Origin: a virus
Taxonomy: Duplodnaviria > Heunggongvirae > Uroviricota > Caudoviricetes
DNA: 4,558 bases
IMG/VR virus record: IMGVR_UViG_2695420589_000007
Reading direction: 5' to 3' (one strand)
Shown here: positions 2,331-4,351 of the stretch, one piece after another
Position numbering within the stretch: position 1 is the stretch's first letter
Layout: each line of letters begins with the position of its first letter
The notes under the pieces: generated by a model
The model's database searches: none
What the model saw: the letters and a program-made list of their open reading frames with translations, nothing else
What the model was told of the DNA's origin: nothing
Made by a program: the position numbers and the translations under genes

Positions 2331-4351
2331 CAGTTTTCAGCTGAAGGCGATCATCACTGCCGTGGATAAGGTATCGGCACCGCTGAAGGGAATGCAGCGC
2401 CAGCTGAAAGGTTTTAAAAAGGAGTTTGCCAGCCTGTTACTGGGCGCAGCGGGTGCCGGAACCGCAGTACTGGGGGCGCTGGCGCTCCCGGTCAAATCTG
2501 CCATTGCCCTTGAATCAAAAATGGCGGATGTCCGGAAAGTGGTGGATGGTCTGGATACGCCGGAAGCGTTTAAGGCAATGACGGAGCAGGTGCGCGACCT
2601 GTCAACAGAACTGCCCATGTCGGCGGAAGGTATCGCCGAAATTGTGGCGGCGGGTGGTCAGGCTGGTATCGCCCGTGACGAGCTGATGCAGTTTACTGAC
2701 GATGCCGTGAAGATGGGCGTGGCCTTTGACACCACGGCAGAAGAATCCGGTCAGATGATGGCGCAGTGGCGCACTGCCTTTAAACTGACACAGGGAGAGG
2801 TGGCAGGGCTTGCGGATAAGATTAACTATCTTGGTAATACCGGTCCTGCAAGTGCGAAAAAGATTTCTGATGTTGTGACCCGTATTGGCCCTTTAGGCAG
2901 TGTTGCGGGTGTGGCCTCCGGAGAGATTGCCGCAATGGGGGCAACCATTGCCGGAATGGGGGTGGAGTCAGAAATTGCTGCGACGGGGATAAAGAATTTT
3001 ATGTTGTCGCTGACAGCGAGGGATTCTGCCACCAAATCGCAGAAAAAAGTGCTCCGCTCGTTGCGCATTAGCCCGAAAAAACTGGCGGCGGATATGCAGA
3101 AAGACGCCCGCGGGGCCATGCTGCACGTACTGGATTCTCTGGCAAAAGTGCCGAAAGAAAAACAGGCTGCTGTGCTGAAAGCGCTGTTCGGGAAGGAATC
3201 CCTGGGGGCCATTGCGCCGCTGCTCACGAATCTGGATTTGTTGCGAACCAACTTTAATCGTGTGGCGGATGCGCAGCAGTATGGCGGCTCAATGCAGAAA
3301 GAATATGCCGCCCGTGCCGCGACGACAGAAAATCAGTTGTTGCTGCTGCAGAACCAGATCAATGCGATTTCTTCCACGCTGGGGGAAACCTTCCTGCCTT
3401 CACTCAATGAAGGCATAAAAGAGATGAAGCCTTTTCTGGAAGAAGTGCGCACGTTTGTCAGAGAAAATCCTGAGGTCGTAAAAACCATCGCGAAAACTGG
3501 TGCGGCATTACTGACGATGGGCGTGGCGATTGGCACATTGACACGCATAACAAAAATCATGGGTAGCGTGATGAATATGACGCCGGCAAAGGGATTAATT
3601 GCGCTTCTCGTCGGTGGTGCATATCTCATAATTGATAACTGGGAAACGGTCGGTCCGGTTGTGAAAAAAGTCTGGCAGGAGGTTGATCAGGTTGTCAGAG
3701 CAATGGGGGGATGGGAACAGGCAGTAAAAACAATAGCAACGGTTTCTGCCCTGTATATTGGTGTGAAGGCGGTGGCAAGTATTCGTGCGGCAACAGTCGC
3801 CCAGAATCAATGGACAACGGCGGCAGGAAAAACAGGGCTGAAATTAAAGGGCCNNNNNNNNNNNNNNNNNNNNNNNNNNNNNNNNNNNNNNNNNNNNNNN
3901 NNNNNNNNNNNNNNNNNNGAAATTAAAGGGCCTCGGAAAGATCAGTCTGATTGGTGGATTGCTTGAACTGGGCATGATGGCGCAGGAGTTTGAAAAAGCA
4001 CATCCCTGGCTTGTTAAAAATTTTGTGGCTGATGCACTGAACAGTGGATTTGGTCTGAATGATAAGTTCGACGAGTGGGGCAAACAGTTCCATGATTTTG
4101 TCTATGACATGACCGGATGGCAGATGCCACGTGGTGATGGGTATTTATCTCCCGATAAACGCTACACCCCGAATGTATCACTGGAAAGGAATCAGCTGTT
4201 AAGCCTTGCATCTTCACCGGCAACCCGCAGCGAACTTAAGGTGACGTTTGACAACGCGCCGCCTGGAATGCGCGTTATCGATTTGCCGAAAACAGGCGAT
4301 CCCTTTATGAAAATCACCCATGATGTTGGGTATTCTCCATTTAAAAGGTGA
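2323..4351 (+). CDS. Phage tail tape measure protein, interrupted by assembly gap 3854..3918; true product probably ~649 aa if the gap is an overlap artefact
   Basis: GAGGAG at 2310..2315 with a 7-nt spacer to ATG 2323. The N-terminal region (FKKEF...LLLGAAGAGTAVLGALALPV...ESKMADVRKV...) looks like the conserved tape-measure core domain to me, and there are Gly/Ala-rich and hydrophobic segments mid-protein. The track ORF 2323..3966 is translated through the N run; its last 15 codons (EIKGPRKDQSDWWIA) are a frame artefact. The frame open from 3920 to stop TGA 4349..4351 (KLKGLGKISLIGGLLELGMMAQ...) registers with the pre-gap frame through the shared codons AAA TTA AAG GGC, so I call one gene. 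Confidence 0.7.
3840..3932 (+). repeat. Identical 14-nt sequence GAAATTAAAGGGCC on both sides of the N gap (3840..3853 and 3919..3932)
   Basis: Direct comparison of the gap flanks. Consistent with overlapping contig ends joined by a scaffolder with filler N, or with a collapsed short tandem repeat. Confidence 0.85.
3854..3918. other. Assembly / scaffolding gap (65 N)
   Basis: Run of n characters in the sequence as given. Confidence 0.99.

Follow-up and report, generated by a model that had tools for sequence, protein, structure and literature searches.

The run of 65 Ns inside the tape measure gene of this prophage sequence is most probably (probability about 0.96) a scaffolding artefact between two contig ends that overlap by 14 nt, and sequence comparison indicates that the gene itself is an uninterrupted frame of 649 codons. 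The repeat flanking the gap is no biological feature, but an ordinary artefact. The window, i.e. the whole stretch of 4,558 nt that was analysed (IMG/VR record IMGVR_UViG_2695420589_000007), is the complete scaffold of a degraded, IS-bounded, phiP27-like prophage remnant. Altogether, the comparisons support a continuous tape measure gene of 1950 nt, predicted to encode 649 aa, within this remnant of a phiP27-like prophage with a Mu-type tail.

The gap and its flanking repeat

The sequence GAAATTAAAGGGCC abuts the only N run of the window on both edges with 14/14 identical nucleotides (Table 1), and no further copy was found on either strand of the window. The identity of the flanks covers exactly 14 nt, with the 15th base being different. 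For one fixed pair of positions, the chance of such an identity is 4^-14 (~4e-9), so it cannot be regarded as a coincidence. Both copies lie at phase 2 of their own open frame and are translated as (L)-K-L-K-G. When the sequence is read literally, the gap and the second copy add 79 positions. Since 79 mod 3 = 1, this shift creates a false stop at 3964-3966, which ends the ORF running from 2323 across the Ns, and an apparent second ORF at 3959-4351 with a TTG start. Deleting the gap and one copy leaves an ORF of 1531 + 419 = 1950 nt, corresponding to 649 sense codons and a stop. The first-pass annotation had noted the same 14 nt directly before and after the gap, both reading K-L-K-G, had joined 2323..3853 and 3933..4351 into a single ORF of 1950 nt and 649 codons, and had attributed the ORF end at 3966 and the separate ORF from 3959 to the arbitrary gap length. 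All of its figures are correct: the two copies match exactly, and the 79-position frameshift accounts for both artefacts.

The literal reading is not without consequences for annotation. It yields a truncated product of 547 residues, some of them X, as well as a spurious ORF of 130 aa, and the tape measure gene could be mistaken for a pseudogene.

Table 1 Features of the window, with positions, strand and the observation on which each assignment is based. L001–L014 are related loci from Escherichia coli and Shigella.
Feature	Position	Strand	Basis
IS3-family (IS600-like) element, terminal 31 nt, left scaffold end	1..31	+	Homologues start at 32
Tail sheath, 498 aa	51..1547	+	PF04984, PF17481 and PF17482 above cut-off; RefSeq annotation of L002 agrees
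Tail tube, 118 aa	1547..1903	+	PF10618, 115.7 bits
Tail assembly chaperone, 111 aa (1903-2238), with open -1 frame to 2330	1903..2330	+	PF10109
Tape measure gene, 5' part (codons 1-510 and 1 nt)	2323..3853	+	100% identical to L009 7273-8803; PF10145
14-mer, genuine copy, left contig end	3840..3853	+	Comparison with L009
65-N gap, probable scaffolding artefact; true inter-contig distance probably -14 nt	3854..3918	.	Flanks map to L009 4951-8803 and 8790-9429 with 14-nt overlap
14-mer, redundant repeat of the same genomic bases, right contig start	3919..3932	+	Single in each of L001-L014
Tape measure gene, 3' part (rest of codon 511 to stop)	3933..4351	+	100% identical to L009
Hypothetical 160-aa gene, first 36-37 codons, cut by IS1	4419..4528	+	Full 160 aa in L003, L005 and L007
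IS1, terminal 30 nt, right scaffold end	4529..4558	+	Continues into 768-bp IS1 in L009

The assignment of the interrupted gene is based on the PF10145 (PhageMin_Tail) domain at aa 88-290, which scored 152.8 bits against a gathering cut-off of 33.2 in a search with the protein of L001, from which the collapsed window protein differs at 2 residues. It is further in line with the gene order in L002, L007 and phiP27, where sheath, tube, PF10109 chaperone and tape measure genes are followed by DNA_circ_N and baseplate genes. RefSeq annotation of the E. coli homologues agrees and continues with the DNA circularization protein and Mu-type baseplate genes.

Upstream of the tape measure gene, the -1 frame of the chaperone gene stays open to 2330 and thereby overlaps the start of the tape measure gene. 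The motif T TTT TTT at 2166-2172 is a plausible, putative slippery heptamer at which the conserved frameshift of the chaperone would yield a protein of ~142 aa. Both chaperone frames are fused in L008 by a 1-nt insertion near window position 2200, and a 142-aa product is called there. The sheath gene of the window is intact, unlike that of L001 (E. coli FDAARGOS_944), which is split by an IS4-like ISEc60 (379-1671) with an 11-nt target duplication at the window equivalent of 494-504.

Continuity of the junction in related loci

An exact lookup of the tail sheath protein led to ten loci on long assembled contigs, mostly complete chromosomes, and the junction was compared in 15 related loci from E. 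coli, Shigella and phiP27 (L001–L014 and the phage phiP27). Among these, the closed chromosome CP044151.1 (L009, 4.96 Mb) shares both IS neighbours with the window, the IS600-like element in front of the sheath gene and IS1 behind the tape measure gene. Window positions 1-3853 align with its positions 4951-8803 and window positions 3919-4558 with 8790-9429, each with 0 mismatches, and the stretch common to both pieces is precisely the 14-mer (8803 versus 8790); in all of L001–L014 the flanks likewise map to overlapping coordinates. The collapsed scaffold of 4479 nt is thus identical to CP044151.1 4951-9429 at 4479/4479 nt, both IS junctions included, with 0/1950 mismatches in the tape measure gene. 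A second genome (L012, CP060117.1) differs from the collapsed scaffold by 1 nt. A scan of genome contigs with one exact 40-mer matched two closed genomes, S. flexneri SFBU1023 and E. coli ECMA0423; the draft was not among the matches.

The 14-mer occurs once, with the same continuation, in each of L001–L014, and the homologous segment of phiP27 is also single, with one mismatch to the 14-mer. The junction is continuous in 15/15 related loci. The alignment of both flanks to a closely related complete prophage, proposed as a check in the first-pass annotation, thereby found an unbroken junction, and the view put forward there that the gap looks like a scaffolding artefact is supported, about as far as a comparison of sequences can go, by the full identity with CP044151.1. 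Its further statement that the gene is probably intact holds for the reading frame, which has the same 1950 nt as in L009, but not for its surroundings, since the prophage itself is an IS-bounded, partly deleted remnant.

The length of the gene is equally consistent. Every uninterrupted annotated or called tape measure gene measures 1950 nt or 649 aa (L001, L002, L004–L010, L012–L014 and phiP27). In ungapped comparison, the collapsed gene shows 3/1950 mismatches to L001, 51 to L002 and 69 to phiP27. In 24 complete E. coli records, one single place covered at least 80% of a 600-nt query centred on the junction, and for the full-length matches listed, the span in the record equals that of the query.

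In addition, the exact 649-aa translation of the collapsed gene is already catalogued as "phage tail tape measure protein [Shigella sonnei]" and "MULTISPECIES [Shigella]". It is found on at least 1000 contigs and is indexed in 2042 collection blocks; in 1875 of these, the longest contig measures 2-5 kb, as this scaffold does. Consequently, very many independent assemblies of the lineage call an uninterrupted gene. Another protein of this cluster, nearly identical in sequence, is encoded on a 4475-nt contig. 'Partial' versions of the tape measure protein with 631 and 628 aa (P0007, P0014) derive from S. sonnei contigs of ~4.18 kb, indicating that other drafts end within the 3' part of the gene, elsewhere than at the N gap.

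IS elements and other possible contents of the gap

All prophage homologues match the window at 32-4528 only. The first 31/32 nt of the window correspond to the end of IS copies located elsewhere in L003–L006, L010, L011, L013 and L014, and the ORFs adjoining this IS600-like end encode a 100-aa HTH_Tnp_1 and a 272-aa rve protein. The element abuts position 32, 19 nt before the sheath start codon, at the last nucleotides of the DUF2635 gene; therefore, the lineage of the window has lost the tail terminator gene together with most of the DUF2635 gene. In S. flexneri-type loci (L005/L006 4477-5004), the same IS lies ~490 nt further upstream. At the right end, the IS1 of L009 has 768 bp, encodes InsA/InsB and shows a 9-bp target duplication; it interrupts the gene for the 160-aa hypothetical protein at 9290-10176 of that locus. 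A Pfam search of the 160-aa protein gave no match. In L008, an ipaH-like effector gene (11135-11497) with LRR_TTSS and NEL domains lies just downstream of the truncated tail module. As both window ends are IS termini, the window represents a complete draft scaffold broken at repeats.

With IS elements being so abundant here, the most serious alternative is that a further element inserted into the tape measure gene of this isolate, in which case the 14-mer would represent the duplicated target site, and Ns would stand in for an element that failed to assemble. If such an insertion with a 14-bp duplication were true, the tape measure gene would be disrupted in an already decaying prophage. The direct repeats around the gap do resemble a target-site duplication, and the locus is rich in IS elements, which are found at both scaffold ends, in the tape measure gene of L011 (IS3 family) and in the sheath gene of L001 (ISEc60). 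The case of L011 (CP097831.1) is a true interruption of the tape measure gene: a 1262-nt IS3-family element (8575-9836) is inserted at the window equivalent of 3620-3624, not at the site of the N gap, and its flanks overlap by 5 nt. However, native prophage sequence reaches up to the Ns of the window, and the gap borders carry neither IS termini nor other foreign sequence, whereas the real junctions at both scaffold ends keep 30-31 nt of the element. The size of the gap (65 N) does not fit an element of 0.77-1.3 kb, and the real duplications in this locus comprise 9 nt (IS1, L009), at most 5 nt (IS3 family, L011) or 11 nt (ISEc60, L001), but not 14 nt. Finally, the closed genomes with both of the same IS junctions (L009 and L012) are continuous and without insertion. 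On these grounds, a hidden IS element was rejected as very improbable.

Even less probable is that the gap hides genuine extra sequence of the gene, for example a whole number of tandem repeat units, which the first-pass annotation had offered as its own alternative. Tape measure genes of some phages contain tandem repeats, and 14 nt present on both sides of the gap resemble the boundary of a unit. However, TRF reported 0 tandem repeats in the intact tape measure gene at a minimum score of 30, and each of the 15 related loci has the segment only once; these two results led us to discard the proposal. Moreover, the uninterrupted homologues all measure 1950 nt, and the literal unit of 79 nt is not a multiple of 3.

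The idea that the N run masks 65 real bases (by masking or a low-quality consensus), the sequence being truly 79 nt longer and the gene frameshifted, has similarly little to commend it: some collections do mask stretches as N, but masking replaces bases and adds none, whereas the scaffold exceeds a closed reference, to which it is otherwise 100% identical, by 79 positions. We dismissed the idea for this reason. Taken together, these three explanations share only the small remainder of probability left by a scaffolding artefact.

Origin of the gap and comparison with known systems

A scaffolding artefact could have arisen as follows. The window is one complete short-read draft scaffold, reaching from the IS600-like end to the IS1 end and most likely derived from Shigella sonnei or a very close relative, to judge by the source names of the exact protein. 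In it, the assembler presumably produced two contigs inside the tape measure gene with ends overlapping by only 14 nt. This overlap would have been too short for the assembler to merge the contigs, and the break probably arose where usable coverage fell locally. Read pairs would then have joined the contigs, and the scaffolder presumably wrote a mis-estimated distance of +65 N instead of the true -14 nt. With a true distance of -14 written as 65 N, the 14-mer appears two times in the scaffold, and the 79 surplus positions change the reading frame, so that the gene is called in two pieces. The IS stubs of 30-31 nt at the scaffold ends suggest a de Bruijn assembler with k near 31. The 14-nt overlap does not fit the k-1 overlap of ~30 nt suggested by these stubs, which argues for a coverage or error hole rather than a branch of the graph. 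A search for a sequence feature behind the assembly break found no repeat or unusual sequence at the site.

The protein obtained by collapsing the 79 positions was known before and is widespread in Shigella and E. coli, and thus reveals no new biology. The value lies in annotation hygiene only, for which a simple check is at hand: a negative gap can be recognized by identical bases on either side of the Ns.

Such negative gaps, i.e. overlapping contig ends split by Ns, are known from other assemblies. The authors of PBJelly validated cases of -1 to -43 bp by Sanger sequencing (PMC3504050), and SOAPdenovo2 is reported to put gaps often between overlapping contigs (PMC5368935). As in this class, the window has identical bases on both sides of the N run, the true sequence is restored by trimming the Ns and one copy, and the -14 nt lie within the Sanger-validated range (PMC3504050). 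There is no difference of substance. The gap of the window is a positive estimate of 65 N and not a minimal placeholder.

The translation of the collapsed gene matches, at every residue, the 649-aa protein of Shigella sonnei and the Shigella 'MULTISPECIES' entry, and the sole difference of the window is its artificial interruption. Among complete phages, the Stx2e phage phiP27 (NC_003356.1) is the closest. Its tail length tape measure protein L47 (P27p47) is likewise encoded by a gene of 1950 nt, with 96.8% nucleotide identity and 636/650 identical translated positions (stop counted), and its gene order is of the same type as in the window, with sheath, tube, chaperone, tape measure, DNA circularization protein and baseplate genes. 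Unlike in phiP27, the copy in the window sits in an IS-truncated prophage remnant without the upstream tail terminator and DUF2635 genes, and IS1 interrupts the next gene after the tape measure gene.
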